Origin: Trichodesmium erythraeum IMS101
Lineage (GTDB): Bacteria > Cyanobacteriota > Cyanobacteriia > Cyanobacteriales > Microcoleaceae
Assembly: GCF_000014265.1 (NCBI RefSeq)
Contig: NC_008312.1
Location: 4,710,001-4,742,000 of the forward strand
Direction of reading: 5' to 3'
Length of the DNA stretch: 32,000 nt
The notes under the pieces are model-generated. The model had not been told where the DNA came from. It saw only the letters and a program-made list of their open reading frames with translations, and did not search any database. Shown here piece after piece: positions 5,264-30,814 of the stretch (position 1 is the stretch's first letter; each line of letters starts with the position of its first letter). The position numbers and the translations under genes were made by a program.

Positions 5264-5706
5264 GAGTACGGCAACTGCGATCATATCTTTACCATTTTCC
5301 TCACTTACTGAAGACAAAATCTACTATAAAATAGAAATAGAAACAAAGAATTAAATGACACATAAAATATAAATTGAGGAGGTAATAAATATAGCTATTG
5401 TTGATTTTTATATTGCCCATGAAATTGATTCCTAACAAAAATAAATAAATGATTTAATTTGCTAAATTATAGCCTTGTATAAAGATGTGATTACATTAAA
5501 AAAAAAGAGTACGGCAACTGCGATCGCATCTTTAACGTTTTCCTCACTTACTGAAAACAAAATCTACTATAAAATAGAAATAGAAACAACAAATTAAATT
5601 ATACATAAAACAGACATTGAGGAGGTAATAACTATAGATATTGTTAATTTTTTTATGTTGCTCATGATTTCGATTCCTTTAATTAGCTAAATATTAGATG
5701 TGATTA
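5264..5706 (+). repeat. Two decayed mini-units of the hsp20 repeat (leader plus start-codon relic, coding body deleted)
   Basis: Starts near 5264 and 5507, period about 243 bp. Each carries gagtacggcaactgcgatc...ttttcctcacttactga...ctactataaaatagaaatagaaaca...ttgaggaggtaataa followed by ATAGCTATTGTTGATTTTTAT. This parallels the intact units (…tttccctcacttactcaac…ggaggtaataaATGGCTATTGTTAGTTTTCCT). ATG has become ATA and a stop follows after 14 codons. Confidence 0.75.
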
Positions 5707-5751
5707 TATAGCAATCGAAGCAAAGGTTAGGACGTTAACTTAACAGCATAA

Positions 5752-6285
5752 TCAACTCTCAATGCGAAAATTTTCTATTGTTCCTTCTGACTTTCTGACT
5801 CGATTTTTAATTGGAAACCAATAATGTTCTATTTCATTTAAGTCAGGAGAATATGGTGGTAAATATTCAAGCTCACAATTCACTGATTCTATTAATTCTC
5901 TAACTTTTTGGGATTTATGAAAACTTGCATTGTCTAATATTACTAATTGTCCTGTTTTTAATTGTGGCAACAATTTTTCTCTCAACCATTTTTCAAAAAC
6001 TACACGGTTACAAGAGCCTTCAAATGTTAATGGAGCAACTAATTTTCCTTCACACAAACCACTTACAATACTTACCCTTAGACTTCTTTTTCCTGACTTT
6101 AAATCGTAATATCTTTTTCCCAATTCATTCCATCCATAACCATAATCTTCTCTATTATCCATACCTGATTCATCTATATACACTAGCTGTTCCGGCCTTT
6201 TATCGCGAATTTTGGCCAGAAATTTCTTTCTTTTGTCTTCATCTCTTTCTCTGTAACCGTAAGTTTTTTTTTCTTGTATAACCAA
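5752..6285 (-). CDS. IS630 transposase, DDE catalytic part (orfB), reached by a -1 shift in the A9 run
   Basis: 177 aa with LVYIDESGMD ... LVILDNASFHKS ... [18 protein letters not shown], the DD(34-35)E signature of IS630. A -1 slip on A AAA AAA AA joins ...IGYTRKKK to TYGYRERDEDKRKKF. I cannot tell whether this is programmed frameshifting or a lesion. Confidence 0.85.
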   Translation of the reverse strand: MVIQEKKTYGYRERDEDKRKKFLAKIRDKRPEQLVYIDESGMDNREDYGYGWNELGKRYYDLKSGKRSLRVSIVSGLCEGKLVAPLTFEGSCNRVVFEKWLREKLLPQLKTGQLVILDNASFHKSQKVRELIESVNCELEYLPPYSPDLNEIEHYWFPIKNRVRKSEGTIENFRIES

Positions 6286-6598
6286 TTTTTTTTAAGGCTT
6301 TACTTATAGTGCGATCGCTTACCTTATCTGGCCATTCATCAGCCATTTCTTTTTGAGTTTTACTGCCATTAATCTGGGCAAATTTTCTGAATTGTTCTAA
6401 GTCTGGTATTTTGGGATTATATCCTTTTTGATAACCTGTTTTTGCTTTTATATCCCCAGTTTCTCTTCTTCTATGTAACCAAGTATTGATGGTATTACGA
6501 CTAATCTTAAATATAGAACTTACTTGAGTTTTACTCATCCCACCATCAATGGCCTTAATAACTTTTTGTCTTAAGTCATAGCTATAAGGAGAAGGCAT
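6239..6598 (-). CDS. IS630 transposase, N-terminal HTH part (orfA)
   Basis: 119 aa: MPSPYSYDLRQKVIKAIDGGMSKTQVSSIFKISRNTINTWLHRRRETGD, a typical IS630 HTH region. It ends just after an A9 run (T9 at 6264-6272 on the plus strand). Confidence 0.85.
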   Translation of the reverse strand: MPSPYSYDLRQKVIKAIDGGMSKTQVSSIFKISRNTINTWLHRRRETGDIKAKTGYQKGYNPKIPDLEQFRKFAQINGSKTQKEMADEWPDKVSDRTISKALKKIGYTRKKNLRLQRKR

Positions 6599-6796
6599 AA
6601 TCTTTCCTAGATAATTTTTCGAGCATTATGTCCTAATCTTTGCTTCGACTGCTATACTCAAGAAATAATACGGCAGTTATGATCGCATCTTTTCTTTTTT
6701 TATTACTTGTTGAAGAAAAAAAGTCTACTAACTTAAGTAGAAACATCAAAAATAAATAAAATCACATCTAAAACATAAATTTAGGAGATTATAAAT

Positions 6797-7394: not shown

Positions 7395-7772
7395 ATGCAC
7401 CAAAATATCTCTTCACTAAGCCATAAAAATTTACCAAGACCTAAGGGTATACCTGGCAACAATTCTGATGCACATATGTATTTATCAATGTATCAAACTA
7501 TTGCAAAAAAAGAGCATGTAGAAAAGGAACTACGAGATCTAGAGAGGCGAACTAAAAAGGCTAAACAAAAATTGGCTATGCTTGAGGAACAAATAAGCAA
7601 ATATCCTGCACTATCGCCCGAACTAAAAAATCCAACTCAGTCACAAACGAAACAACACACTAGTATGTTAAAAAAACACAAAACCTTGAACGTATTCGAT
7701 AAAACCAGCACAACTGGGAGGGGTAGTACTCAGAATGAAACGAAATTTACAACAATTACTATGGGATATTAG
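7395..7772 (+). CDS. Hypothetical lysine-rich coiled-coil protein (125 aa)
   Basis: ATG ORF. The central segment MYLSMYQTIAKKEHVEKELRDLERRTKKAKQKLAMLEEQISK is heptad-like and the tail is S/T/K/Q-rich low complexity. There is no clear SD. It lies in about 1.4 kb of unique sequence embedded between hsp20 relics. Confidence 0.4.
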   Translation: MHQNISSLSHKNLPRPKGIPGNNSDAHMYLSMYQTIAKKEHVEKELRDLERRTKKAKQKLAMLEEQISKYPALSPELKNPTQSQTKQHTSMLKKHKTLNVFDKTSTTGRGSTQNETKFTTITMGY

Positions 7773-8003: not shown

Positions 8004-8551
8004 GCAGCTAAATTGGATGTATTTTTCAAGTTTGAGACGACAAACACATATTGTGAATAAACTAGGGGTAATTTAATTTTAAAGACATTATATATAGAGA
8101 TCAGTAAATTAGATGTATTTGCCCTAATGGCTGCCCGAAAAGTTGAAATAAAAATCAACTAAAATTGGGGGGAGAAGGGGTTGGTTCTCGAAGCTAACTA
8201 ACTTCTTTTCTAGAAATGACGATGATTATTACTAACCGAAAAATCAATATTTTCTAAAAAAGTAGAATTATTTAAATCTTTGTCCGACAATAGTTTGGAG
8301 TATATTGTTGCCCTGTTATGAATTGAGCATATCATAGCATTTCAAAAAAGAATTTTATAAATAAGTTAAGTATTATAATCATGTCATAGTAGGCATTTTG
8401 AAAGTTAGTATTAGCAGGTAGTAAATAGCTACTGTGAATTTTTATGTTGTGCGTGAAGTTGATCCCGGCAAAAAAATCAATCAATTATTGGCTGGATATT
8501 TGCGCTGCTAATTAGCTAAATATTAGTCATTGAGAAAGATGGAATGAACTG

Positions 8552-8603
8552 AAAAAAAAAAGAGTAGGGAAAGTACCTGAGTTTGTTTCTCGTTTCCCTC
8601 ACT
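8552..8603 (-). terminator. Intrinsic-terminator-like hairpin plus U-run in ANTISENSE orientation (representative; recurs in every array spacer)
   Basis: The plus strand reads A10-g-AGTAGGGAAA-(20 nt)-TTTCCCTcACT. On the minus strand this is a 10-bp stem with one bulge, followed by c and a U8-10 tract. It recurs at about 9232-9281, 9910-9959 and in each later spacer. No T-run follows it on the plus strand. Confidence 0.35.
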
Positions 8604-8687
8604 TACTCAACACATAATTTACTCTAAAGTAGAAAAAGAAATAAGAAATTAATCGTACATAAAACATAAATTTCGGAGGTAATAAAG

Positions 8688-9199
8688 ATGGCTATTGCAA
8701 ATTTTTCTGTTCTCGGCAATATAGGTTCTTGGATGGGTTTTCCCGTTGTGGATCAAGTTGTGGATCAAATCAATTCCTTGAAAAAAGAAGTAAATTGTTT
8801 ATCTGAGGTTTCCACTTCTACTATCAATGGTAAAGTTACTTCTACTATAAATGGTAAAGTACAAGAAATAGAGTTTACACCAGAGGTTGAAATCCACGAA
8901 AACAATAATGGTATTGATTTAAGACTGGAAATACCAGGTTTAGAATTTCAAGGTTTAGGTCTACAAGTGAATGCTGAAAGAGTAGAAATTAAAGGAAAAA
9001 ATCGCCAAGACACTGAAGTAGAAGAACAAGATTAAGTTCGTTATGAATTTCATTATGGTGCTTTCCAACGCAGAATTTCTCTACCAGTTAGGGTTCAAAA
9101 TAACCTGGTAAAGGCTGACTATAAAGATAGTTTTTGCACATACATTTACCTAAAAGTGAAGCTGATAAAAATCAAGTTGTGAAGGTAAATGTTGGCTAA
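8688..9199 (+). pseudogene. Hsp20 family, type I copy 1: 115-aa ORF ended by in-frame TAA (9033-9035), with the C-terminal half still recognisable downstream
   Basis: GGAGG lies 8 nt upstream of the ATG. The ORF ends ...KGKNRQDTEVEEQD-TAA where intact copies read ...EEQD-TTG (L). Downstream the sequence continues in frame as VRYEFHYGAFQRRISLPVRVQNNLVKADYKD. A 1-nt deletion (gatagtttttgcaca versus gatggtattttgcat) then shifts the frame before the ancestral stop at 9197-9199. Confidence 0.85.
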
Positions 9200-9365
9200 A
9201 TATTAGTCATTGAGAATGATGGAATGAACTGAAAAAAAAGAGTAGGGAAAGTACCTGAGTTTGTTTCTCGTTTCCCTCACTTACTCAACACATAATTTAC
9301 TCTAAAGTAGAAAAAGAAATAAGAAATTAATCGTACATAAAACATAAATTTCGGAGGTAATAAAG

Positions 9366-9877
9366 ATGGCTATTGCAAATTTTTCTGTTCTCGGCAATAT
9401 AGGTTCTTTGATGGGTTTTCCTATTGTGGATCAAGTTGTGGATCAAATCAATTCCTTGAAAAAAGAAGTAAATTGTTTATCTGAGGTTTCCACTTCTACT
9501 ATCAATGGTAAAGTTACTTCTACTATAAATGGTAAAGTACAAGAAATAGAGTTTACACCAGAGGTTGAAATCCACGAAAACAATAATGGTATTGATTTAA
9601 GACTGGAAATACCAGGTTTAGAATTTCAAGGTTTAGGTCTACAAGTGAATGCTGAAAGAGTAGAAATTAAAGGAAAAAATCGCCAAGACACTGAAGTAGA
9701 AGAACAAGATTAAGTTCGTTATGAATTTCATTATGGTGCTTTCTAACAAAGAATTTCTCTACCAGTTAGAGCTCAAAATGACCAGATAAAGGCTGACTAT
9801 AAAGATGGTTTTTGCACATACATTTACCTAAAAGTGAAGCTGATAAAAATCAAGTTGTGAAGGTAAATGTTGGCTAA
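9366..9877 (+). pseudogene. Hsp20 family, type I copy 2 (same TAA allele, further decayed tail)
   Basis: The 115-aa ORF differs from copy 1 at 2 residues. It carries the same TAA at 9711-9713. The tail has a second stop (ggtgctttcTAAcaaaga) and the same 1-nt deletion. Confidence 0.85.
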
Positions 9878-10044
9878 ATATTAGTCATTGAGAATGATGG
9901 AATGAACTGAAAAAAAAGAGTAGGGAAAGTACCTGAGTTTGTTTCTCGTTTCCCTCACTTACTCAACACATAATTTACTCTAAAGTAGAAAAAGAAATAA
10001 GAAATTAATCGTACATAAAACATAAATTTCGGAGGTAATTAAAG

Positions 10045-10556
10045 ATGGCTATTGCAAATTTATCTGTTCTCGGCAATATAGGTTCTTGGATGGGTTTTCC
10101 TATTGTGGATCAAGTTGTGGATCAAATCAATTCCTTGAAAAAAGAAGTAAATTGTTTATCTGAGGTTTCCACTTCTACTATCAATGGTAAAGTTACTTCT
10201 ACTATAAATGGTAAAGTACAAGAAATAGAGTTTACACCAGAGGTTGAAATCCACGAAAACAATAATGGTATTGATTTAAGACTGGAAATACCAGGTTTAG
10301 ACTTTCAAGGTTTAGGTCTACAAGTGAATGCTGAAAGAGTAGAAATTAAAGGAAAAAATCGCCAAGACACTGAAGTAGAAGAACAAGATTAAGTTCGTTA
10401 TGAATTTCATTATGGTGCTTTCTAACAAAGAATTTCTCTACCAGTTAGAGCTCAAAATGACCAGGTAAAGGCTGACTATAAAGATGGTATTTTGCATATA
10501 TATTTACCTAAAAGTAAAGCTGATAAAATCAAGTGATGAAAGTCAATGTTGGCTAA
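10045..10556 (+). pseudogene. Hsp20 family, type I copy 3 (same TAA allele)
   Basis: The 115-aa ORF is identical to the ORF at 11367. TAA lies at 10390-10392. The tail has an extra TAA and indels near aaatcaagtgatgaaag. Confidence 0.85.
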
Positions 10557-10722
10557 ATATTAGTCATTGAGAAAGATGGAATGAACTGAAAAAAAAGAGT
10601 AGGGAAACTACCTGAGTTTGTTTCTCGTTTCCCTCACTTACTCAACACATAATTTACTCTAAAGTAAAAAGAGAAAGAAGAAATTAATCATACATAGAAC
10701 AAAATTTTCGGAGGTAATAAAT

Positions 10723-11199
10723 ATGGCTATTGTTAGTTTTCCTATGGTGGGGGATATAGATTCTTTTATGACTTTTCCTCTTGTGCGTAGAAACAATTCC
10801 TTGAAAAAAGAAATGAATTGTTTATCTGAGGTTTTCACTTCTGCTATAAATGGTAAAGCTAAAGAAATAGTATTTACACCAGCGGTGGAAATCTACGAAA
10901 ATAATGATGCTATTGATTTAAGGCTGGAAATACCAGGTTTAGAAGTTAAAGATTTAGATGTACAAGTGACTGCTGAAGCAGTAGAAATTAAAGGAAAACG
11001 TCGTCAAGAAACTGAAACGGAAGAACAAGACTTGGTTCGTTCTGAATTTCATTATGGTGCTTTCCAACGCAGAATTTCTCTACCAGTTAGAGTTCAAAAT
11101 AACCTGGTAAAGGCTGACTATAAAGATGGTATTTTGCATATACATTTACCTAAAAGTGAAGCTGATAAAAATCAAGTTGTGAAGGTCAATGTTGGCTAA
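10723..11199 (+). CDS. Hsp20/alpha-crystallin small heat-shock protein, type II (158 aa, intact)
   Basis: Complete ACD: FTPAVEIYENNDAIDLRLEIPGLEVKDLDVQVTAEAVEIKGKRRQE...LVRSEFHYGAFQRRISLPVRVQNNLVKADYKDGILHIHLPKSE. This matches the canonical sHSP pattern (PGv..eDi.V......l.I.G.r......ER.yG.F.R...LP..v....v.A.y.dGvL.i.lPK). GGAGG RBS present. Confidence 0.93.
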   Translation: MAIVSFPMVGDIDSFMTFPLVRRNNSLKKEMNCLSEVFTSAINGKAKEIVFTPAVEIYENNDAIDLRLEIPGLEVKDLDVQVTAEAVEIKGKRRQETETEEQDLVRSEFHYGAFQRRISLPVRVQNNLVKADYKDGILHIHLPKSEADKNQVVKVNVG

Positions 11200-11366
11200 A
11201 TATTAGTCATTGAGAATGATGGAATGAACTGAAAAAAAAGAGTAGGGAAACTACCTGAGTTTGTTTCTCGTTTCCCTCACTTACTCAACACATAATCTAC
11301 TCTAAAGTAGAAAAAGAAATAAGAAATTAATCGTACATAAAACATAAATTTCGGAGGTAATTAAAA

Positions 11367-11891
11367 ATGGCTATTGCAAATTTGTCTGTTCTCGGCAATA
11401 TAGGTTCTTGGATGGGTTTTCCTATTGTGGATCAAGTTGTGGATCAAATCAATTCCTTGAAAAAAGAAGTAAATTGTTTATCTGAGGTTTCCACTTCTAC
11501 TATCAATGGTAAAGTTACTTCTACTATAAATGGTAAAGTACAAGAAATAGAGTTTACACCAGAGGTTGAAATCCACGAAAACAATAATGGTATTGATTTA
11601 AGACTGGAAATACCAGGTTTAGACTTTCAAGGTTTAGGTCTACAAGTGAATGCTGAAAGAGTAGAAATTAAAGGAAAAAATCGCCAAGATACTGAAGTAG
11701 AAGAACAAGATTAAGTTCGTTATGAATTTCATTATGGTGTTTTCTAACAAAGAATTTCTCTACCAGTTAGAGCTCAAAATGACCAGGTAAAAGCTGACTA
11801 TAAAGATGGTATTTAAAGATGGTATTTTGCATATATATTTACCTAAAAGTGAAGCTGATAAAATCAAGTGATGAAAGTCAATGTTGGCTAA
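11367..11891 (+). pseudogene. Hsp20 family, type I copy 4 (same TAA allele, plus a 13-bp tandem duplication in the tail)
   Basis: The 115-aa ORF is 100% identical to copy 3. TAA lies at 11712-11714. The tail contains ctataaagatggtatttaaagatggtattttgc, a duplicated aaagatggtattt. Confidence 0.85.
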
Positions 11892-12058
11892 ATATTAGTC
11901 ATTGAGAATGATGGAATGAACTGAAAAAAAAAGAGTAGGGAAACTACCTGAGTTTGTTTCTCGTTTCCCTCACTTACTCAACACATAATTTACTCTAAAG
12001 TAAAAAGAGAAAGAAGAAATTAATCATACATATAACAAAATTTTCGGAGGTAATAAAT

Positions 12059-12535
12059 ATGGCTATTGTTAGTTTTCCTATGGTGGGCGATATAGACTCT
12101 TTTATGACTTTTCCTCTTGTGCGTAGAAACAATTCCTTGAAAAAAGAAATGAATTGTTTATCTGAGGTTTTCACTTCTGCTATAAATGGTAAAGCTAAAG
12201 AAATAGTATTTACACCAGCGGTGGAAATCTACGAAAATAATGATGCTATTGATTTAAGGCTGGAAATACCAGGTTTAGAAGTTAAAGATTTAGATGTACA
12301 AGTGACTGCTGAAGCATTAGAAATTAAAGGAAAACGTCGTCAAGAAACTGAAACACAAGAACAAAATTTGGTTCGTTCTGAATTTCATTATGGTGCTTTC
12401 CAACGCAGAATTTCTCTACCAGTTAGAGTTCAAAATAACCTGGTAAAGGCTGACTATAAAGATGGTATTTTGCATATACATTTACCTAAAAGTGAAGCTG
12501 ATAAAAATCAAGTTGTGAAGGTCAATGTTGGCTAA
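12059..12535 (+). CDS. Hsp20/alpha-crystallin small heat-shock protein, type II (158 aa, intact)
   Basis: Differs from the 10723 copy at 3 residues (V/L, E/Q, D/N). Same leader variant (gggaaaCtacc..., ...aaaattttcggaggtaataaat). Confidence 0.93.
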   Translation: MAIVSFPMVGDIDSFMTFPLVRRNNSLKKEMNCLSEVFTSAINGKAKEIVFTPAVEIYENNDAIDLRLEIPGLEVKDLDVQVTAEALEIKGKRRQETETQEQNLVRSEFHYGAFQRRISLPVRVQNNLVKADYKDGILHIHLPKSEADKNQVVKVNVG

Positions 12536-12703
12536 ATATTAGTCATTGAGAATGATGGAATGAACTGAAAAAAAAAGAGTAGGGAAACTACCTGAGTTTG
12601 TTTCTCGTTTCCCTCACTTACTCAACACATAATCTACTCTAAAGTAGAAAAAGAAATAAGAAATTAATCGTACATAAAACATAAATTTCGGAGGTAATTA
12701 AAA

Positions 12704-13204
12704 ATGGCTATTGCAAATTTGTCTGTTCTCGGCGATCTAGATTCTTGGATGGGTTTTCCTACTGTGGAGCAAATCAATTCCTTGAAAAAAGAAATCAACT
12801 ATTTATCTGAGGTTTCCACTTCTACTGTAAATGGTAAAGTTACTTCTATTATAAATGGTAAAGTCAAAGAAATAATGTTTACTCCAGCAGTCGAAATCCA
12901 CGAAAATAATGATGCTATTGATTTAAGGCTAGAAATACCAGGTTTAGAAGTTAAAGATTTAGATGTACAAGTGACTGCTGAAGCAGTAGAAATTAAAGGA
13001 AAACGTCGTCAAGAAACTGAAACACAAGAACAAAATTTGGTTCGTTCTGAATTTCATTATGGTGCTTTCCAACGCAGAATTTCTCTACCAGTTAGAGTTC
13101 AAAATAACCTGGTAAAGGCTGACTATAAAGATGGTATTTTGCATATACATTTACCTAAAAGTGAAGCTGATAAAAATCAAGTTGTGAAGGTCAATGTTGG
13201 CTAA
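12704..13204 (+). CDS. Hsp20/alpha-crystallin small heat-shock protein, chimeric type (166 aa, intact)
   Basis: The N-terminus resembles type I (MAIANLSVLG..., TSTVNGKVTSIINGKV duplication, type I leader). From about AVEIHENNDAIDLRL onward it is essentially type II and includes the full C-terminal half. Confidence 0.93.
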   Translation: MAIANLSVLGDLDSWMGFPTVEQINSLKKEINYLSEVSTSTVNGKVTSIINGKVKEIMFTPAVEIHENNDAIDLRLEIPGLEVKDLDVQVTAEAVEIKGKRRQETETQEQNLVRSEFHYGAFQRRISLPVRVQNNLVKADYKDGILHIHLPKSEADKNQVVKVNVG

Positions 13205-13631
13205 ATATTAGTCATTGAGAATGATGGAATGAACTGAAAAAAAAAGAGTAGGGAAACTACCTGAGTTTGTTTCTCGTTTCCCTCTCTTACTCAATACTAA
13301 ATCTAGTCTAAAGTAGAAGGAGAAAACTCATCTGGGGTTTTCACTTCTACTATTTTTGGTAAAATCAAAGAAATAGCTTTGATACCAGGAAGTGTTGATA
13401 CCACTAAAGGTGAATTAAGATCTTTTTATGATTATTTTCTAGAGCACCGGAACTCTCGCCTATTCGGTTAAAATAAAATCTGATGGGTTAATTTCCGGGG
13501 CATCTTCTAAGGTAGCTATTTTGCCACCACCGCCAAAACCCGGTAGCCGACCTTGGCATTGTAATATAAGTCTCCGGTGGCGCGATCGTAAACGATGTCT
13601 GCTACAGATCTCGAAACGGCTTTTTTGTTTT

Positions 13632-14542
13632 TACAGCAATTTTCAGGTAAATAGACCACAGTGGTTGAACCAACCGAAGGCATCATCTTCAGTAATGAAA
13701 TTTACAACTTCAGCCATTGCTTGCTCCAGTGATTCATGGGTACGTGCCTCACAAGAACGGAGAAATTGCTTCAGTTTCGACCAACAAAGCTCAATAGGTG
13801 ATAAATCAGTAGTAAGACCTGGGTTTAATAAAGTGATAAATACCTCAGTATTTGTACTTCCTGGTACAGTCATCGACGCAATCAGTCCATCCAGGTTCAA
13901 AGCACCAATCAAAGAAACATTTCCACCCTTGCTACCTGGGATACTACCAACAGCTCGTTCCCCATCTACGGCTCTGGCGAATAAACGAGACATTGACAAA
14001 TTTATTCGGGCTTCATCAACAAATACTAAATTTCTGACATCAATTTTATCTAACCAACGTCGATAGTCATGTCTTAACTCTTGGACTCTTGGGGTATCTT
14101 GCTCACTGGCATAAAGACTTTTTTTTTGCACCGTAAGCCTAATTTTTCTACGGCGCGATGCATTGTGGAGATACTCACCCTAATTCCTGTTGTTTCTTGA
14201 TAGCGAGCGCATAATTCTCTCAGCAATAAGTCATTTTTCTCCTCTACCAGAGATTTGATGATGTTGAGATTATCATAGGAAATTATTGGCTGCTGATATC
14301 CTCCACGTCGTTTGGCCTCAATTTGTCCAAGAGTGACGATAATGACGCAACAAATTTTCGTACCATAGACAAGCTGACCTTAAATCTTTCAGCCAACTGA
14401 CGTTGAGAGCCTTCTTTTGCTTCCCAAGCTATAATCACGCGACGACGCAAATCACTCGAATACGATACTGGCATTAAATTTAACAATTACATCAAACCCA
14501 TTTTACCGCACTTTGTGGTTCAATTACCTGAAAAGTGCTGTA
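13632..14542 (-). mobile_element. IS630-family element, type 2, copy A (911 bp, internally deleted)
   Basis: Ends are TAcagcaattttcaggtaaatagaccaca... and ...tgtggttcaattacctgaaaagtgctgTA, an imperfect IR of about 30 bp flanked by TA. It is 121 bp shorter than copy C (1032 bp). Confidence 0.85.
13643..14486 (-). pseudogene. IS630 type 2 transposase, fragmented and deleted (copy A)
   Basis: The HTH part is MPVSYSSDLRRRVIIAWEAKEGSQRQLAERFKVSLSMV. This is followed by frame changes, including at an A-run (T10, 14119-14128, on the plus strand; T9 in copies B and C). The 162-aa ORF reads ...VFVDEARINLSM...NPGLTT-DLSPIELCWSKLKQF and lacks the DNL...PPYSP block that is present, though frameshifted, in copies B and C. 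Confidence 0.8.
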
Positions 14543-18135: not shown

Positions 18136-19188
18136 CCACAACTGACCATTACAAAAGGTTTGGCTTCGCTGGAATATATGAAATATAGGTGCAACAGTAA
18201 AACTTAGTTGGGTTTTGAGTTGCTTCCGCAGGAATTGAAAATACTTTTCACTTGGTTGATAGGGCAACTTATCAACCTTATTTTTTTTAGGAGGAAATAT
18301 GTCAACTTGTATTGTTTACTCTGACGGGATAAACCCAAGGACAAACGCTTGGGAAGTAATAGAGAATTTGTTAGTTGAACTCATGAAAAACAACGAGCAA
18401 ATAATTTTATTTAACAGAAATTCATTAGATCAGTTCACTCAATTTTATCTTACAGCAATTTTCAGGTAAATAGACCACAGTGGTTGAACCAACCGAAGGC
18501 ATCATCTTCAGTAATGAAATTTACAACTTCAGCCATTGCTTGCTCCAGTGATTCATGGGTACGTGCCTCACAAGAACGGAGAAATTGCTTCAGTTTCGAC
18601 CAACAAAGCTCACACTTGTGATAAATCAGGAGAGTAAGGGGGCAAAAACTTGACTTGAGCACCGACGGACTCAATGGCAACTCTGACACGTTCAGCATGA
18701 TGAACCTTGAGATTATCCATTACCACGATTGCCCCTTGCCACAACTGAGGTAGTAAGACCTGGGTTTAATAAAGTGATAAATACCTCAGTATTTGTACTT
18801 CCTGGTACATTCATCGACGCAATCAGTCCATCCAGGTTCAAAGCACCAATCAAAGAAACATTTCCACCCTTGCTACCTGGGATACTACCAACAGCTCGTT
18901 CCCCATCTACGGCTCTGGCGAATAAACAAGACATTGACAAATTTATTCGGGCTTCATCAACAAATACTAAATTTCTGACATCAATTTTATCTAACCAACG
19001 TCGATAGTCATGTCTTAACTCTTGGACTCTTGGGGTATCTTGCTCACTGGCATAAAGACTTTTTTTTTGCACCGTAAGCCTAATTTTTCTACGGCGCGAT
19101 GCATGGTGGAGATACTCACCCTAATTCCTGTTGTTTCTTGATAGCGAGCGCATAATTCTCTCAGCAATAAGTCATTTTTCTCCTCTAC

Positions 19189-19540
19189 CGGGACTTTAGT
19201 GAAAAAATAGTAAAAAAAAGGGTATAATGTATACCTGATATGTATTTTACGTTAATTACTGGCCTGGGAAAAGTTTGATGAAAGAAACAACTTCAGTGGC
19301 CATGCCCTCTTGTTTCCATCGATGGTGCGATCGCTTTAACAATGTCTTTAAAACAAAAGCCCAAAAAACAGGGTTTAGGGAATATATAGGAGGATTACTC
19401 TTGAGAAAGCGATCGAAAAAACTTGTCTCAAATTGCCAACAACACTGTAGGTCACACGTACCACAAATTACGGCATTTTCTAGTTCGAGCAAATTGGTCT
19501 GTAGATGCTGTGAATGAGCGTCGTCTTCAAGTAATGTGGG
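19189..19540 (+). mobile_element. IS701-like element, 5' fragment (first approximately 352 bp)
   Basis: It starts with the terminal repeat CGGGACTTTAGTG and appeared identical to the first approximately 352 bp of the complete copies wherever I compared them by eye. It ends abruptly at ...gtaatgtggg. The left flank is CTAC. Confidence 0.85.
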
Positions 19541-19698
19541 GGTAGTCCTGTATATGTAGTGATAAAATTACAGTGAAGCGATCGCTTCATTATAATGATT
19601 AATGAAATACCAAATAGCTCCTAGATGGTTTTCTAGCTTTTTAGAAAAGGATAAAGTCTTTCTGACCAACCGAGAAATTCTTTGACGCAAAGTATTAT
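19541..19698 (-). mobile_element. IS1-family element, terminal 158-bp fragment
   Basis: Minus-strand translation gives NTLRQRISRLVRKTLSFSKKLENHLGAIWYFINHYNEAIASL*. This parallels the C-terminus of E. coli IS1 InsB (…[39 protein letters not shown]). The putative end repeat ggtagtcctgtatatgtagtgat lies at 19541. Confidence 0.7.
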
Positions 19699-21074
19699 CG
19701 GGACTTTAGTGAAAAAATAGTAAAAAAAAGGGTATAATGTATACCTGATATGTATTTTACGTTAATTACTGGCCTGGGAAAAGTTTGATGAAAGAAACAA
19801 CTTCAGTGGCCATGCCCTCTTGTTTCCATCGATGGTGCGATCGCTTTAACAATGTCTTTAAAACAAAAGCCCAAAAAACAGGGTTTAGGGAATATATAGG
19901 AGGATTACTCTTGAGAAAGCGATCGAAAAAACTTGTCTCAAATTGCCAACAACACTGTAGGTCACACGTACCACAAATTACGGCATTTTCTAGTTCGAGC
20001 AAATTGGTCTGTAGATGCTGTGAATGAGCGTCGTCTTCAAGTAATGTGGGAACGTCGCCAAACAAAACCTTCTCGATCCTATTGCTTTAATTATAGACGA
20101 TTCAGGCCACAGAAAAAGTGGTAATTTTACTGCAGGAGTAGGGCGGCAATATATAGGAGAAATAGGAAAAACAGATAATGGTGTAGTCGTGGTGACAACT
20201 CATCTTTATGATGGAGTTAAAAGTCTACCTTTAGACATAGCTTTGTATCAGAAAGCTGATTCTTTTCCAAAAGGAAAAAAAGACCCAGAATTTGTCAAGA
20301 AACCAGACGAGTGCAATGTCTCTAGTAGATCAATGTTTGTCCAGAGGACACCAACCAGAAATTGTGTTAATTGAAATTTGGCTATGGTAACAATACATCA
20401 TTCTTAAATCAACTAGAGAAAAGAAGTTTAACTTATATAGGAGGATTAGCTAAAAATCGAAAAGTCATCATTAAAAAACAAGATGACATTAAAGAGGAAA
20501 TTAGATTAGACAAGCTGGCAGAAAGTATACCTCAGAAAGCTTTCAACTTAGTTCAACTAAGTACAAAAAATGCTAGAGAAGTTTGGGTAGCTACATTAGA
20601 AGTAGAAATATCTAGGATGTCAGGTCAAAAAACTATAGCTATCGTTATGAATGCTAAAAGTTTTTCTGAGGCCACTGATATTAACTATTATATCACTAAT
20701 AGAGAAGACAAATATGTAACTCCTGAGTGGATATATTCTACTTATTCTCAAAGAAATTGGGTGGAAGTTTTCTACAGGGAAGCCAAAGGATGGTTAGGAT
20801 TAAGAGAATATCAAGTCAGAGATAAAATCAGCCTTAAAAGGCATTTTATTTTAGTATTTTGTGCTTATACATTTATTATCTGGCATCAGTTAACAGGAGG
20901 TATAAGAAGGCGTTGGGCTAACAAACCATTAAATACGTTTACTGATACTTTAGAAGCATTTCGTACCGCAATATCTTATCGTTTTGTTGAGTGGTTAGAT
21001 GAAAACATCGACGTATTTACCGCTCATAAAGAGAGTTTAGGGTTTGTTTGGGCTTGAAATTTGCTAAAGTCCCG
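19699..21074 (+). mobile_element. IS701-like (IS4 superfamily) element, complete copy 1 (1376 bp)
   Basis: Terminal repeats are CGGGACTTTAGTGAAA... and ...TTTGCTAAAGTCCCG. The right flank CTAC matches the left flank of the 5' fragment at 19185-19188, a 4-bp target duplication spanning the composite. Size and the 4-bp duplication fit the IS701 family. Confidence 0.85.
19785..21057 (+). pseudogene. IS701-like transposase broken into at least 5 frame segments
   Basis: Track ORFs 19785..20027, 19933..20124, 20189..20374 and 20371..21057, plus my reading of intervening frames: ...LIIDDSGHRKSGNFTAGVGRQYIGEIGKTDNGVVVVTTHLYDGVKSLPLD..., AMSLVDQCLSRGHQPEIVLI, FGYGNNTSFLNQLEKRSLTYIGGLAKNRKV. Together these form one transposase only if about 4 single-nucleotide frameshifts are bypassed. 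Confidence 0.8.
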
Positions 21075-21691: not shown

Positions 21692-24034
21692 ATGAATAAT
21701 GAAACTGATACTCCTGTTAATACCGACAATTATTTATTAAGAAGCGTACATACAAACAATTTCCCTAAAATTTTAGATCAGCTAGGCATATCTTTAGTTG
21801 TTTCTACTTATCAAGCAGGTAAATTAATTGTATTGCGTGCCGATAATGGAGTAATTAATACTCACTTTCGAGCCTTTAAGAAACCTATGGGATTAGCAGT
21901 AACTAACGAAAAAATTGCTCTGGGAACTGCTTATAAAATTTGGGATTTTCGTAACGTTCCAGCAGTAGCAGAGAAAATAGAACCCCAAGGGAAATATGAT
22001 GCTTGTTATTTACCAAGAAATATTCATATAACTGGAGATATTGATATCCACGAAATGGCTTGGGTGAAAGATGAATTATGGTTTATTAATACTCGTTTTT
22101 CTTGCCTTTGTACTCTCGGTCATCCTAATAGTTTTGTGCCCAGATGGCGACCTCCTTTTGTCACTGGATATGACTTAACAGACCGGTGTCATTTAAATGG
22201 ATTTTGTTTAAAAAATGACCTACCAAAATATGTCACAGCTTTAGGAGAAACTGATACTGCTGCTGGTTGGAGAAAGAATAAAGCTAATGGGGGAATATTA
22301 ATAGATATAGAAACAAATGAAGTATTAATTCGGAACTTATCTATGCCTCATTCTCCTAGATGGTATCAAGAACAATTATGGTTATTAGAGTCTGGTAATG
22401 GTAGTCTGGCAAAAGTTGATTTAAACCAGAGAAAATTACGAACAATTGCTAAATTACCAGGGTTTACTCGCGGTATAGATTTTTGGGGAAATTTAGCATT
22501 TATTGGTTTGTCTCAAGTTCGAGAAACTGCTGTTTTTACGGGTATGCCTATTACTGAACTTCAAGAAAGAATTTGTGGGGTTTGGGTGGTAAATATTTTA
22601 ACTGGAGAAACTATCGCTTTTTTAAGATTTGAAGCTGGAGTTCAAGAAATTTTTTCTGTGGCAGTTTTGCCTAATATTCGCTTCCCAGAAATTATTGAAT
22701 GGGATGAAAATTTATTAGCAAATTCCTATGTTTTACCTGATGAAGCTTTAGCAGAAACAATCAAAACAACTGTAGAAATAGCTATGGCAGAAACTCATTT
22801 ACTTAAAGGAAATAAATTATATCAAAAAGGTGAATTAGTAGAAGCGATCGCTGCATATCAAGAATGTTTGAAGTTACAACCAGATTTGACAATAGCGAAA
22901 TATAATTTGGGAGTTGCTTTAGGAGATAATCAACAATATGAAGCAGCAATTAATGTTTTAGAACAGGTAATTAATACAGAACCAGATAATGCCGATGTTC
23001 AAAATAGTATTGCTTATGCTTATAGTCAAAAAGGTGAATTACACAAAGCAATTAAACATTACGAAAAAGCAATTTATCTCAACGGTAATTTTGCCAAAGC
23101 ACATTTTAATTTAGGCATAACTTTGTTAAAAAATGGAGATTTAAAACGAGGATTTGCAGAATGTGAATGGCGCTGGCAAACAGGACAATTTACACCCTTT
23201 CAATGTCCTCATCCACGATGGAAAGGGGAAGATATTAGCAATAAAATTTTATTAATTCATACTGAGCAAGGAGCAGGAGATGCTATTCAATTTATCCGTT
23301 ATGTTCCTTTAGCAGCAAAACTTTGTCAAGGTATTATATTGGTCTGTCTACCAGAGTTAATTCCTCTATTTAAAAATATCCCAGAGATTGATAAATTAAT
23401 GCCACCAGGAGAACTAAAATTATCAGAGTTTGATATCTATGTACCCTTAATGAGTTTACCCTATATTTTCGGCACAACTTTAGAAACAATTCCTGCCAAT
23501 ATTCCCTATCTTCAATCTACAAATAGCAACCCCATAAATCTTACTAATACTCAATATAAAGTAGGCATTGTTTGGAGTGGTAGTTCTACTCATAAAAATG
23601 ATGGTAATCGTTCTTGCAAAATCACAGACTTTTTACCTATTTTACAGGTACCAGGAGTCAAATTTTATAGTCTACAAAAAGGAGAAAATAGGCAAGAATT
23701 AACTCAAGTTCCCAGTAATATTCAGATAGAAGATTTAAGTTATCAGTTAAACAATTATGCTGATACAGCAGCAGTAATAGAGCAACTAGATTTAGTAATT
23801 ACTGTTGATACTTCTGTGGCACATTTAGCAGGAGCATTAGGTAAAAATGTATGGAATTTATTATGTTTTAATCCGGACTGGCGTTGGTTACAAGAAGTTG
23901 AAGATACTCTTTGGTATCCAACCATGAAATTATTCCGTCAGTCTCAGTCAAGAAAGTGGCAAGAAGTTATTGAAAAAGTTCAGGAACATTTGTGGAAAAT
24001 TATCACAGGAAACATGATTATTAGTAATAAGTAA
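21692..24034 (+). CDS. Fusion protein: TIGR03032-family N-domain + TPR repeats + GT9-like (heptosyltransferase-fold) C-domain
   Basis: 780 aa. The N-terminal approximately 340 aa (SVHTNNFPKILDQLGISLVVSTYQAGKLIVLRA..., DIHEMAW...ELWFINTRFSCLCTL, RWRPPFVT...DRCHLNG, MPHSPRWY...LWLLESG) match what I recall of TIGR03032 proteins. The middle has TPR repeats (AIAAYQECLKLQPD..., AIKHYEKAIYLNGNFAKAHFNLG). The C-terminus (LLIHTEQGAGDAIQFIRYVPL..., VGIVWSGS..., LVITVDTSVAHLAGALGKNVW) resembles GT9-like domains commonly fused to TPRs. Confidence 0.85.
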   Translation: MNNETDTPVNTDNYLLRSVHTNNFPKILDQLGISLVVSTYQAGKLIVLRADNGVINTHFRAFKKPMGLAVTNEKIALGTAYKIWDFRNVPAVAEKIEPQGKYDACYLPRNIHITGDIDIHEMAWVKDELWFINTRFSCLCTLGHPNSFVPRWRPPFVTGYDLTDRCHLNGFCLKNDLPKYVTALGETDTAAGWRKNKANGGILIDIETNEVLIRNLSMPHSPRWYQEQLWLLESGNGSLAKVDLNQRKLRTIAKLPGFTRGIDFWGNLAFIGLSQVRETAVFTGMPITELQERICGVWVVNILTGETIAFLRFEAGVQEIFSVAVLPNIRFPEIIEWDENLLANSYVLPDEALAETIKTTVEIAMAETHLLKGNKLYQKGELVEAIAAYQECLKLQPDLTIAKYNLGVALGDNQQYEAAINVLEQVINTEPDNADVQNSIAYAYSQKGELHKAIKHYEKAIYLNGNFAKAHFNLGITLLKNGDLKRGFAECEWRWQTGQFTPFQCPHPRWKGEDISNKILLIHTEQGAGDAIQFIRYVPLAAKLCQGIILVCLPELIPLFKNIPEIDKLMPPGELKLSEFDIYVPLMSLPYIFGTTLETIPANIPYLQSTNSNPINLTNTQYKVGIVWSGSSTHKNDGNRSCKITDFLPILQVPGVKFYSLQKGENRQELTQVPSNIQIEDLSYQLNNYADTAAVIEQLDLVITVDTSVAHLAGALGKNVWNLLCFNPDWRWLQEVEDTLWYPTMKLFRQSQSRKWQEVIEKVQEHLWKIITGNMIISNK

Positions 24035-25115: not shown

Positions 25116-26491
25116 CGGGACTTTAGTGAAAAAATAGTAAAAAAAAGGGTATAATGTATACCTGATATGTATTTTACGTTAATTACTGGCCTGGGAAAAG
25201 TTTGATGAAAGAAACAACTTCAGTGGCCATGCCCTCTTGTTTCCATCGATGGTGCGATCGCTTTAACAATGTCTTTAAAACAAAAGCCCAAAAAACAGGG
25301 TTTAGGGAATATATAGGAGGATTACTCTTGAGAAAGCGATCGAAAAAACTTGTCTCAAATTGCCAACAACACTGTAGGTCACACGTACCACAAATTACGG
25401 CATTTTCTAGTTCGAGCAAATTGGTCTGTAGATGCTGTGAATGAGCGTCGTCTTCAAGTAATGTGGGAACGTCGCCAAACAAAACCTTCTCGATCCTATT
25501 GCTTTAATTATAGACGATTCAGGCCACAGAAAAAGTGGTAATTTTACTGCAGGAGTAGGGCGGCAATATATAGGAGAAATAGGAAAAACAGATAATGGTG
25601 TAGTCGTGGTGACAACTCATCTTTATGATGGAGTTAAAAGTCTACCTTTAGACATAGCTTTGTATCAGAAAGCTGATTCTTTTCCAAAAGGAAAAAAAGA
25701 CCCAGAATTTGTCAAGAAACCAGACGAGTGCAATGTCTCTAGTAGATCAATGTTTGTCCAGAGGACACCAACCAGAAATTGTGTTAATTGAAATTTGGCT
25801 ATGGTAACAATACATCATTCTTAAATCAACTAGAGAAAAGAAGTTTAACTTATATAGGAGGATTAGCTAAAAATCGAAAAGTCATCATTAAAAAACAAGA
25901 TGACATTAAAGAGGAAATTAGATTAGACAAGCTGGCAGAAAGTATACCTCAGAAAGCTTTCAACTTAGTTCAACTAAGTACAAAAAATGCTAGAGAAGTT
26001 TGGGTAGCTACATTAGAAGTAGAAATATCTAGGATGTCAGGTCAAAAAACTATAGCTATCGTTATGAATGCTAAAAGTTTTTCTGAGGCCACTGATATTA
26101 ACTATTATATCACTAATAGAGAAGACAAATATGTAACTCCTGAGTGGATATATTCTACTTATTCTCAAAGAAATTGGGTGGAAGTTTTCTACAGGGAAGC
26201 CAAAGGATGGTTAGGATTAAGAGAATATCAAGTCAGAGATAAAATCAGCCTTAAAAGGCATTTTATTTTAGTATTTTGTGCTTATACATTTATTATCTGG
26301 CATCAGTTAACAGGAGGTATAAGAAGGCGTTGGGCTAACAAACCATTAAATACGTTTACTGATACTTTAGAAGCATTTCGTACCGCAATATCTTATCGTT
26401 TTGTTGAGTGGTTAGATGAAAACATCGACGTATTTACCGCTCATAAAGAGAGTTTAGGGTTTGTTTGGGCTTGAAATTTGCTAAAGTCCCG
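25116..26491 (+). mobile_element. IS701-like element, complete copy 2 (1376 bp)
   Basis: Same termini as copy 1, with a 4-bp target duplication TTAA (25112-25115 and 26492-26495). All ORF-track fragments have amino-acid sequences identical to copy 1. Confidence 0.9.
25202..26474 (+). pseudogene. IS701-like transposase, same multi-frameshift allele as copy 1
   Basis: ORFs 25202..25444, 25350..25541, 25606..25791 and 25788..26474 are identical in sequence to those of copy 1. Confidence 0.8.
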
Positions 26492-27867: not shown

Positions 27868-28741
27868 CTAAAGATAGTTAGGATAAGCGTTTGAGTATTT
27901 TTGGAGATGTCTAGTGGTTTCAGATAGAGAGCGTCTATGGTATCCACTTTCATGCTTCCATTTTTGCCGTCCTATTTGACGAATTCCTCTGAGGTTCTCA
28001 TCTCTGGGAGCGGGTAGGGCTTTACAGTTGCCATGCTGCCTAATCACAGCATTTTTACGCGGTGGAATGGTCGTTTTTATGCCTCCTTGGTGAGCTGTTT
28101 CATAGCACTTGTATTTGTCATCAGCCCCATCACCTGAAACTTGGGCTATTTCACCTTCTACTCCATCTAATAGGTCAGAAAATACTTGGTCGTCACTCAC
28201 ATCATTGGTTGTGACAACTGCTGTGACAATCTCTCCGGTGGCCTCATTCACACTCTAGTAATTTACGCCATGTCCTACGTTTACCTACACCATGAATCCT
28301 GGTTTTCCATTCCCCTTCACCGTAGACTTTGACCCCTGTAGAATCAACTACCAAATGCATCCCTTCTGTCCTTGGTTTCACTGGTATCCCGATATTTAGT
28401 TTTCTGACCCTACGGCATACAGTGCTATGGTCTGGTACAGGTAAATCTAATCTCTAAAAATCAAATATAGATTCTACAAATCCTTCTGTCTGTCGCCCCG
28501 CCCTGCAAACAAACTACTGAGAGTGACCATTAGTTCAATAGCTACATCGCTATAGGTATTCGATGCTCCCTGACGTCCAGTTTGATGTTGATTTACCAAC
28601 TGTTCTATCACTTCATAACTTAGCCAAAATGTCAGGCTCCCTCTCTGCTTTAAGGAGGCATCATCCATACGACCAGTTGCTAACCCGGTACTTGGACTTG
28701 GACTTAGACTTGGACTTAGACTTAGACTTGGACTTACTCAT
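27868..28741 (-). pseudogene. IS5-family, IS903-like transposase relic (several frameshifts, 3' truncated)
   Basis: Minus-strand pieces read M(SK)7YRVSNWS..., DDASLKQRGSLTFWLSYEVIEQ...NTYSDVAIELM..., ...PVPDHSTVCRR...MHLVVDSTGVKVYGEGEWKTRIHGVGKRRTWRKL... and NEATGEIVTAVVTTNDVSDDQVFSDLL...VSGDGADDKYKCYE...IPPRKNA...YHRRSLSETT. They are collinear with IS903 transposase as I remember it (…YRVTNWPAYNNALINRGSLTFWLDDEAI…, HLVIDSTGLKVFGEGEWK…, AADGAYD…, YNRRSIAETAM). Confidence 0.75.
28691..28735. repeat. Hexanucleotide microsatellite (CTTRGA)x7.5
   Basis: cttggacttggacttagacttggacttagacttagacttggactt. It encodes (SK)7 at the extreme N-terminus of the IS903-like transposase on the minus strand. It produces the spurious LDLDLD ORF on the plus strand. 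Confidence 0.9.
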
Positions 28742-28905: not shown

Positions 28906-30814
28906 TTGCAAGATAAACGGTCTCCTGCTACTAGACATGGTTATGAAAGGGATTTAAAGGAATTTTTCAATTATGCAGTAGGTCAGTTACCCACACCAGA
29001 AATAGTCCAACAGTTCTTAAACCTAGACGAATTTACAGCCAAACAAATAGTCTTGAGTTATCGACGTTGGTTGTATTCTAAAGACCTCAAACCAGCAACA
29101 GTAAATAGAAAACTAGCAGCCATAAAAGCTTTAGTTAAGTATGCAAAAAGAATAGGCAAGAGTTGTTATGACCTAACTGACATACAAAGTGATAAAGTAA
29201 TTCCCTACAGAGATACAACTGGACTACCAGTGTCACAGATTACAGCAATTTTCAGGTAAATAGACCACAGTGGTTGAACCAACCGAAGGCATCATCTTCA
29301 GTAATGAAATTTACAACTTCAGCCATTGCTTGCTCCAGTGATTCATGGGTACGTGCCTCACAAGAACGGAGAAATTGCTTCAGTTTCGACCAACAAAGCT
29401 CACACTTGTGATAAATCAGGAGAGTAAGGGGGCAAAAACTTGACTTGAGCACCGACGGACTCAATGGCAACTCTGACACGTTCAGCATGATGAACCTTGA
29501 GATTATCCATTACCACGATTGCCCCTTGCCACAACTGAGGTAGTAAGACCTGGGTTTAATAAAGTGATAAATACCTCAGTATTTGTACTTCCTGGTACAG
29601 TCATCGACGCAATCAGTCCATCCAGGTTCAAAGCACCAATCAAAGAAACATTTCCACCCTTGCTACCTGGGATACTACCAACAGCTCGTTCCCCATCTAC
29701 GGCTCTGGCGAATAAACGAGACATTGACAAATTTATTCGGGCTTCATCAACAAATACTAAATTTCTGACATCAATTTTATCTAACCAACGTCGATAGTCA
29801 TGTCTTAACTCTTGGACTATTGGGGTATCTTGCTCACTGGCATAAAGACTTTTTTTTTGCACCGTAAGCCTAATTTTTCTACGGCGCGATGCATGGTGGA
29901 GATACTCACCCTAATTCCTGTTGTTTCTTGATAGCGAGCGCATAATTCTCTCAGCAATAAGTCATTTTTCTCCTCTACCAGAGATTTGATGATGTTGAGA
30001 TTATCATAGGAAATTATTGGCTGCTGATATCCTCCACGTCGTTTGGCCTCAATTTGTCCAAGAGTAACGATAATGACACAACAAATTTCGTACCATAGAC
30101 AAGCTGACCTTAAATCTTTCAGCCAACTGACGTTGAGAGCCTTCTTTTGCTTCCCAAGCTATAATCACGCGACGACGCAAATCACTCGAATACGATACTG
30201 GCATTAAATTTAACAATTACATCAAACCCATTTTACCGCACTTTGTGGTTCAATTACCTGAAAAGTGCTGTAAACAAATACTCCAGTCGCCAAATACTAA
30301 TCATTTTCAGGGAAAAAGGGACTACGCAATATTAAGACTACTTTGGGATAACGCCTTACGCCGGAGTGAAGTAGTAGCCATTGATATAGGAGATATAAGC
30401 TTAAGCGATCGTACTATTTGGATAAAAGGTAAAGGTACACAGGATAAAGAACGTATCACCATTAACCATAGAACAGTTGCAGCATTAAAAGATTATTTAT
30501 CAATTAGAAAAGGTGGCATAAACGACCTATTATTTATCAGTCTTAGTTCTGCTAATTGGGGTAACAGATTGGCTGATGATACTGTGTACAACTTAGTAAA
30601 ACGCACTTGTTCCGAACTAGGAATAGACAAACCCATGTCGCCACATAAAATCAGACATTCTGCCATTACTCATTTTCTAGACAAATCTGATGGAGACATT
30701 AGAAAAGTACAACAATATTCTCGTCATAAAAATGTGCAGACAGTTTTAGTCTATGACGACAATAGAAAAGACTATCAAGAACAAATGACTGATCTTATGG
30801 GAGAAGATTTTTAG
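28906..30814 (+). pseudogene. Tyrosine recombinase/integrase (XerC/D-like, about 292 aa) interrupted by IS630 type 2 copy C
   Basis: The N-part 28906-29242 (TTG start) has a SAM-like core-binding domain: RSPATRHGYERDLKEFFNY...TVNRKLAAIKALVKYAK. The C-part 30272-30814 reads GKRDYAILRLLWDNALRRSEV..., IKGKG, HKIRHSAITHFL, YSRHKNVQTVLVY (R...K...HxxR...H...Y). Deleting 29243-30272 (the IS plus one TA) restores ...PVSQIKQILQSPN... in frame. Confidence 0.9.
29241..30272 (-). mobile_element. IS630-family element, type 2, copy C (1032 bp, full length but frameshifted transposase)
   Basis: It has the same inverted repeats and TA/TA junctions. ORF fragments 29252..29488 and 29503..29862 plus the N-terminal HTH part need about 4 frame changes to assemble. 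The DNL...HH.../[10 protein letters not shown] block is present out of frame. Confidence 0.9.

Follow-up and report, generated by a model that had tools for sequence, protein, structure and literature searches.

Small heat-shock proteins (sHSPs) of the Hsp20/alpha-crystallin family end, after the alpha-crystallin domain (ACD), in a C-terminal I/V-x-I/V motif that acts as their anchoring motif. The closest described relatives of the genes treated here are the cyanobacterial class-A sHSPs (HspA, Hsp16.6 and Hsp17), whose genes number one to three. For Trichodesmium erythraeum IMS101, the four loci Tery_3061-3064 all count as sHSP genes in a table of cyanobacterial sHSP numbers (Cimdins et al. 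2014, PMC4152365) and in another study, which places them among the ten most strongly induced genes at high Fe (PMC12090762). We analysed a 32,000-nt stretch of the finished 7.75-Mb genome of this strain (NC_008312.1, positions 4,710,001 to 4,742,000; the window, to which positions below refer unless a contig is named), recognised by exact look-ups of the encoded products, and found that these loci are part of an array of seven tandem hsp20 units. Compared with the published "four sHSPs", IMS101 has three intact hsp20 genes and four truncated copies. The truncation of Tery_3062 and the three further truncated copies upstream are not mentioned in PMC4152365, PMC12090762 or the other literature that we found; the kind of phenomenon is well known, and this instance, an array with an amplified nonsense allele, appears to be undescribed.

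We read the locus as a tandem sHSP array in concerted evolution, in which one pseudogene allele has been amplified to four of the seven units and is still transcribed, and give this reading a probability of about 0.7. The seven units lie head-to-tail at 8518-13202 and are followed by an eighth leader with a decayed gene remnant (Table 1). Each consists of a leader of about 170 nt, TTTCGGAGGTAA upstream of the ATG, and the gene body. Four units are of type I (U1, U2, U3 and U5; 115 aa), two of type II (U4 and U6; 158 aa) and one of type III (U7; 166 aa). U7 is a chimera: its leader is identical to that of U5 and its N-terminal region resembles type I, and from the ACD to the tail it is identical to U6. 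Between leaders of the same type there are 0-4 differences, and between leaders of different types 9-10. All of the units and open reading frames (ORFs) listed in the original prediction were present, with unit lengths of 643-692 bp. U4-U7 correspond to Tery_3061-3064, while U1-U3 are unannotated in the original record and appear only in the RefSeq re-annotation, where the U1 and U2 products are WP_052845803 and WP_052845804. The protein common to U3 and U5 is annotated as "hypothetical protein Tery_3062", the locus tag belonging to U5.

Table 1. Array units, remnants and the adjoining transposase in the window.
Feature	Position	Strand	Length (bp)	ORF and product	Remarks
Two degenerate mini-copies of the unit	5295..5700	+	about 243 each		leader, GAGGAGGTAATAA, ATA for ATG, unit end
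Third mini-remnant	8330..8517	+	about 243		directly upstream of U1; same kind as the copies at 5295-5700
U1, type I	8518..9197	+	680	8688-9035, 115 aa, ending TAA	leader; dead tail 9036-9197, intact-like proximally, distal haplotype a with 1-nt deletion
U2, type I	9198..9875	+	678	9366-9713, 115 aa	mosaic tail: proximal block beta with second TAA, distal block a
U3, type I	9876..10554	+	679	10045-10392, 115 aa, same protein as U5	tail beta plus b (1-nt deletion)
U4, type II	10555..11197	+	643	Tery_3061, 10723-11199, 158 aa, ABG52205	intact HspA-type sHSP
U5, type I	11198..11889	+	692	Tery_3062, 11367-11714, 115 aa, ABG52206	tail beta plus b, with 13-bp duplication at 11801-11827
U6, type II	11890..12533	+	644	Tery_3063, 12059-12535, 158 aa, ABG52207	intact sHSP
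U7, chimera (type III)	12534..13202	+	669	Tery_3064, 12704-13204, 166 aa, ABG52208	intact sHSP
Eighth leader and strongly decayed gene remnant	13203..13420	+			N-terminal part missing; also in metagenome contig L011
Broken IS630-family transposase	13643..14486	-		ORFs of 162, 50 and 67 aa	

U4, U6 and U7 belong to the Hsp20/alpha-crystallin family, with a full ACD and the C-terminal motif. Pfam HSP20 (PF00011) matched the U4 and U7 products at 77.2 and 77.9 bits against a cutoff of 20.8 (E about 1e-21), and U6 is assigned through its 98.6% DNA identity to U4 and the Hsp20 name in the source records. Among solved structures, the ACD of cyanobacterial HspA comes closest (PDB 6EWN; E 1.9e-33, type II residues 51-147), and an AlphaFold2 model of type II built with 47 homologue sequences reached a pLDDT of 78-90 across the ACD. 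The intact units end in ...NQVVKVNVG, in which the V-K-V motif aligns across the 47 homologues. They share the ACD match and the C-terminal V-K-V with HspA, Hsp16.6 and Hsp17. The Trichodesmium copies differ from these proteins in an added N-terminal extension of about 12 aa, which is present in all of them and resembles a duplicated ancestral N terminus, and in slippage duplications in the N-terminal region. One of the latter is a 12-nt in-frame duplication (VDQV VDQ) found in type I only (8743-8766 and equivalents), the other a 24-nt in-frame duplication (STINGKVT) common to types I and III (8814-8860 and equivalents).

The type I units lie outside the family, as they lack both a full ACD and conserved residues of it. 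All four type I ORFs end in ...EEQD-TAA at a column that is TTG in the intact units, corresponding to codon 116 of type I and codon 104 in the type II frame, and the U1 and U2 proteins are each three residues away from the shared U3/U5 protein. Pfam HSP20 matches only the 158- and 166-aa products, and the 115-aa product gave no Pfam match at E<=0.01. These observations bear out the original prediction of one TTG-to-TAA change in four copies, nearly invariant 115-codon ORFs and only three genes with a full ACD. By alignment to 6EWN, 53 of the 97 ACD residues remain before the TAA, roughly beta2-beta5. Type I replaces residues that are at least 90% conserved among the 47 homologues (D91G, R105N and E108D), and AlphaFold2 with the same 47 sequences as for type II returned no confident fold (pLDDT 40.8, pTM 0.26). 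From sHSP structures, we take the product to be without beta6-beta9, including the dimerisation strand, and without the C-terminal V-x-V motif. The sequence behind the stop is disabled by a second TAA in U2, U3 and U5, by 1-nt deletions and by the 13-bp duplication in U5, so that type I shows both a premature stop relative to all homologues and a disabled downstream region, as a pseudogene does. We consider the type I ORFs most likely to be expressed pseudogenes, and their 115-aa product presumably has no function. Stop-codon read-through and a split gene were also considered and rejected: the IMS101 tails contain extra stops and frameshifts, and beyond the TAA the ACD frame offers no start codon.

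Several patterns point to exchange among the units. A four-gamete test across the seven units found 210 incompatible pairs among 72 informative sites and at least 6 recombination events (Rm>=6). At six proximal-tail sites, derived states, including the second TAA, are present in U2, U3 and U5 and the intact-type state in U1, whereas in the distal tail one lesion set with a 1-nt deletion is common to U1 and U2 and another to U3 and U5. U2 is therefore a mosaic, as its proximal tail groups with U3/U5 and its distal tail with U1. The two-unit block U3U4 is 98.7% identical to U5U6 over 1322 nt, and the similarity of type I units drops with distance along the array. Among type I copies, the heads (the part before the stop) differ at 2-5/345 positions, the leaders at 0-4/168 and the tails at 3-16/162 plus indels; between type I and type II, heads differ at 52-56/309 positions and tails at only 5-13/162. 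Type I heads are near-identical because their only recombination partners are each other, and type I tails are heterogeneous because exchange continues with the near-identical intact tails.

Comparison between lineages leads in the same direction. Type I units within IMS101 are 96.3-98.8% identical, compared with about 94% to the type I' unit of metagenome contig L018, although the flanks are only 1.2-1.6% apart. Mosaic units and paralogues that are more alike within a genome than the same type between lineages identify this as concerted evolution. Wild units combine the same parts: the tail-a frameshift behind a type II or III head (variants P0023 and P0033), type II heads with the tail-b deletion (P0026 and P0030), type III heads with both tail lesions (P0036 and P0040) and the NRQDTEVEEQD-TAA block on a type II background (P0027 and P0064). 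Some of these recombinants could be assembly chimeras, though several come from assemblies at k=119-141, at which a chimera needs a real bridging k-mer. With Rm>=6, the two-unit super-repeat of types I and II and such wild recombinants, the concerted evolution and unequal crossing-over that had been proposed for the array are well founded. The same proposal had the post-stop tails decaying differently; the lesions exist, but the variants are shared mosaic haplotype blocks.

The nonsense allele is widespread. Among marine metagenome contigs (Tara and others), 19 encode a protein identical to that of U3 and U5, and a further 15 and 11 encode the type I variants P0006 and P0007; scans of JGI metagenome contigs with a type I-specific 20-mer and a leader 24-mer gave zero matches. 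Contig L018 carries the diverged type I' allele (P0061; protein 90% identical to IMS101 type I), followed immediately by an intact unit of 146 aa and then by the lectin-like gene. Its head differs from that of IMS101 type I at 20/345 positions, its leader at 7/137 and its tail at about 10/162, while the flanking DNA stays within the above 1.2-1.6% of the IMS101-like contig L011. Over this longer span, head, leader and tail of type I have diverged equally, and more than the flanks. The context GAT-TAA-GTT is common to all type I copies, the L018 allele and the recombinants P0027 and P0064, and this together with the L018 divergence leads to the conclusion that the nonsense allele arose once, as originally predicted, and predates the present copies.

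Short-read assemblies collapse the array and are thus uninformative on copy number, which is known for IMS101 only. Contigs L011 and L012 carry a single type II unit; a true single-copy haplotype was rejected in favour of assembly collapse, because L021 from the same project, with identical flanks, gives a single type I unit instead. In two independent assemblies (L004 804-983 and L008 759-938) we also detected a type II copy with a 2-nt deletion and a 59-aa product (P0022), which means that pseudogenisation in natural populations affects intact-type units as well.

Type I units give rise to mRNA and share the regulation of the intact genes. About 130 nt before each ATG are conserved from Trichodesmium to Dapis (for example 9876-10044, and L017 9111-9280 and 9719-10003), comprising an A-run, a palindrome-like element, ACTTACTCAACA, TCTAAAGTA/TCTAAAATA and the ribosome-binding site (RBS). 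The palindrome is perfect in the Dapis leader (GGCAATTGCC) and degenerate in T. erythraeum. Cross-genus conservation is the basis for proposing a -10-like TAAAGT/TAAAAT in the leader, with TAAAGT about 55 nt before the ATG. The conservation of the leader suggests that each unit has its own promoter, and the palindrome and -10-like box may be the operator and promoter of the cluster. Consensus promoter and terminator scans of the leaders found none. In published data, high-Fe normalised expression of Tery_3062 was 31, 18 and 22 against 34, 19 and 29 for its neighbours, with the caveat that reads multi-map among the units, and its mRNA falls in parallel with that of the intact neighbours at low Fe (PMC12090762, including Table S2). 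Type I remains transcribed and co-regulated because the leader, with its probable promoter and RBS, is homogeneous in all units. An RNA thermometer, as treated by Cimdins et al. 2014 (PMC4152365), was rejected: the 76-nt RBS regions fold at -3.1/-3.9 kcal/mol (z +0.68/+0.51) and leave the Shine-Dalgarno sequence unpaired.

The original prediction had asked whether divergence is equal before and after the TAA. It is unequal: 10/345 nt segregate in 26 type I heads, compared with about 30/162 nt and three indels in 23 tails (Fisher p = 7e-9). The tail variation, however, consists of a few shared haplotype blocks that always include the intact-type state (contig L024 joins a type I head to a fully intact-type tail) and does not represent independent decay. 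Synonymous density in the heads is low as well (4 per about 75 sites, much less than in the tails); the contrast therefore has a cause other than protein-level selection, and head-versus-tail diversity was discarded as a sign of selection. Different recombination histories are the simplest account, with type I tails 92-97% identical to intact tails and type I heads 17.5% diverged from type II heads.

Over the retained half of the ACD, the ratio of nonsynonymous to synonymous differences (pN/pS) is 0.14 between the intact paralogs and 0.83 and 0.72 between type I and the intact genes. Partitioning the three-way distances assigns about 17.1 nonsynonymous and 3.4 synonymous changes to the type I branch, giving a nonsynonymous-to-synonymous rate ratio (omega) of about 1.3, and the half-ACD thus evolves in an about neutral-like manner on this branch; omega values on type I come from small counts and are confounded by gene conversion. 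The N-terminal regions give an omega of about 0.75-1 (I-III and I-II). They do not discriminate, because the overall and ACD-half ratios of II-III imply a similar value between intact paralogs.

The alternative that survives best, though we consider it unlikely, is that the 115-aa product is maintained and, by way of its N-terminal region, modulates the hetero-oligomers of the intact sHSPs or their binding of substrate, with the gene amplified for dosage. A number of findings lean towards it and weigh against a decaying allele. At least 45 distinct 115-aa sequences in three 90%-identity clusters, spread over dozens of metagenome contigs, are all open, none being listed shorter, and the type II and III clusters, unlike type I, include frameshifted members; as the 115-aa ORFs were retrieved by exact 115-aa identity, this comparison is ascertainment-biased, and the same retrieval applies to the lack of any disrupted type I head among them. 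RBS, start codon and leader of type I are intact, and Tery_3062 is induced more than 10-fold at high Fe, together with and as abundantly as its intact neighbours (PMC12090762). About 20 half-ACD substitutions have accumulated with no frameshift (p about 0.05, an estimate under the indel-to-substitution ratio of the tails). In a bacterium, four out of seven is a high proportion for an allele that is defective; the heads vary far less than the tails, and lineages with type I copies about 6% apart have the allele in common. Between type I and L018 type I', finally, omega is 0.39 (8 synonymous and 12 nonsynonymous changes; one-sided binomial p about 0.05), which may reflect conversion from constrained paralogs, as the differing sites often match intact states.

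What counts against a maintained half-ACD product, an option raised in the original prediction, is the behaviour of the retained half-domain: omega of about 1.3 on its branch, the loss of near-invariant D, R and E residues, and the absence of a Pfam match and of a confident predicted fold. The missing strands and C-terminal motif noted above argue in the same direction, and homogenisation explains the invariant heads, given their low synonymous diversity. A proteomic record of the 115-aa product was not found in our literature search; peptides specific to type I are the C-terminal tryptic QDTEVEEQD and LEIPGLDFQGLGLQVNAER. A somewhat smaller chance still goes to the broader proposal of a half-domain sHSP kept open and amplified as a stress-induced modulator, a capping subunit of sHSP oligomers or a holdase.

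Improbable to a further degree is a role of the type I units as RNA or DNA, either as promoter and leader copies that titrate a regulator or as spacers and recombination substrates for fast expansion and contraction of the array. The leader is indeed the most conserved part of the unit, reaching to Dapis with its -10-like box and palindrome-like element, type I units are transcribed, and another seven-unit array of IMS101 yields a very abundant non-coding RNA (ncRNA; PMC4143802). Yet type I leaders are indistinct from those of the intact units, and homogenisation alone accounts for their conservation. Neither the leader nor the RBS-proximal region has a significant RNA fold (z from -0.7 to +0.7), and Rfam gave no match on the leader, with only a sub-threshold DUF805b (E 0.6). 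The mechanism, moreover, is purely speculative. That copy number or TAA is an assembly artefact or sequencing error is hardly credible: short-read metagenome assemblies do collapse the array to one unit of either type, but assembly errors collapse repeats and do not add copies, the IMS101 genome is finished, its four type I copies can be told apart by diagnostic sites and indels, the TAA recurs on independent contigs from many samples with the 115-aa ORF beside intact units, and contigs join units in the orders I->II, I->III and III->I, the last two of which are absent from IMS101.

Returning to concerted evolution with an amplified and transcribed pseudogene allele, the following course would account for the locus. 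Related marine Microcoleaceae have two to three intact copies; in T. erythraeum the array would have grown to seven units plus remnants, with most copies left to die. Type I would have lost constraint in the first half of the ACD and gained, once, the TAA at codon 116. The nonsense allele would then have been copied through the array, partly within the two-unit I+II block, and we infer that it spread by recombinational drift or by hitch-hiking as the intact neighbours were amplified for dosage. Chaperone would be supplied by the three intact genes U4, U6 and U7.

Both ends of the array carry remnants of it, and the locus is therefore an old array with debris on both sides. Each mini-remnant joins the leader, the RBS and the first codons to the end of the unit (...TTAATTAGCTAAATATTAG). 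Judged from these sequences, the array formerly reached further upstream or was seeded twice, as it appears. The mini-remnants at about 5295-5700 and 8330-8517 flank a 125-aa ORF at 7395-7772. On the distal side, contigs L011, L021 and L028 have a lectin/hemolysin-type gene after the array; homology to it extends in IMS101 only as far as 13633, where the broken IS630-like transposase begins, and this neighbour gene is thus disrupted in IMS101.

Further mobile elements were observed in the window. An IS630-family element lies on the minus strand at 5708-6653, with ORFs at 5752-6285 (DDE_3) and 6239-6598 (HTH_Tnp_IS630), and has no counterpart in metagenome contig L011, which is otherwise 99.65% identical. 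Transposases of 228 aa (DDE_Tnp_1) are encoded at 20371 and 25788 (regions 18713-21057 and 25183-26474; a third region with repeated ORFs is 29503-29862). ORFs of equal length recur, with 119 and 92 aa at 18713/18729 and 29503/29519 and with 99 aa at 19766 and 25183, which indicates several probable repeated insertion sequence (IS) copies around the DUF4915-TPR gene (21692-24034). Within a stretch of higher GC, a hexamer/18-mer tandem repeat (ACTTGG x 7.7) occupies 28690-28736.

The array offers a compact bacterial case of concerted evolution that can be followed in the sequence itself, with a disabled allele in the majority of copies that is nevertheless transcribed. It is also a concrete case for the question of why Trichodesmium tolerates so large an amount of non-coding and pseudogenised DNA, and it amends both the annotation and the published sHSP count of a model marine diazotroph. 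RNA-seq of Tery_3061-3064 is affected, as reads multi-map among the seven units, and few loci respond to Fe as strongly as this cluster. If the 115-aa product did function after all, it would be an unusual natural split or half-domain chaperone.

The original prediction held that sHSP genes are normally single or few, which fails in this clade. Dapis sp. BLCC M126, the only match in a scan of genome contigs, has three intact 146-aa hsp20 copies in tandem with a period of 608-723 bp; two or more hsp20 genes share a contig in Okeania, Hydrocoleum and other Dapis strains, and another Trichodesmium lineage (L033) has at least two in tandem. A tandem cluster of a few hsp20 genes is thus the ancestral state. 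The Dapis, Okeania and Hydrocoleum clusters are homologous in their genes (59-68% identity) and leader. In contrast to T. erythraeum, the copies of Dapis M126 are fewer and all intact, and they have neither the N-terminal extension nor the nonsense allele. Relative to HspA, Hsp16.6 and Hsp17, the Trichodesmium genes stand out by their arrangement in a seven-unit array, in which four units are cut after beta5 and fall outside the family by score.

The same genome holds another seven-unit array at genome positions 103,000-110,200 (Pfreundt et al. 2014, PMC4143802), which resembles the hsp20 array in its units of about 0.7-1 kb, a partial gene copy per unit and transcription. It contains only a 3' gene fragment and yields an ncRNA of about 260 nt, whereas the hsp20 array consists of complete units with three functional genes. 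Tandem arrays that carry a defective variant have been described in 5S rDNA with genes and pseudogenes (PMC3123226) and in Trypanosoma brucei (PMC1855330). Like these, the hsp20 array is head-to-tail and homogenised within the genome, with neighbours most alike, mosaics, two-unit repeats and a defective variant at high copy. It differs in being short, protein-coding and located in a bacterial chromosome, and its defective variant keeps the promoter, the RBS and an open 115-codon ORF. Homogenisation of the hsp20 array is also segmental, with different histories for heads, tails and leaders.

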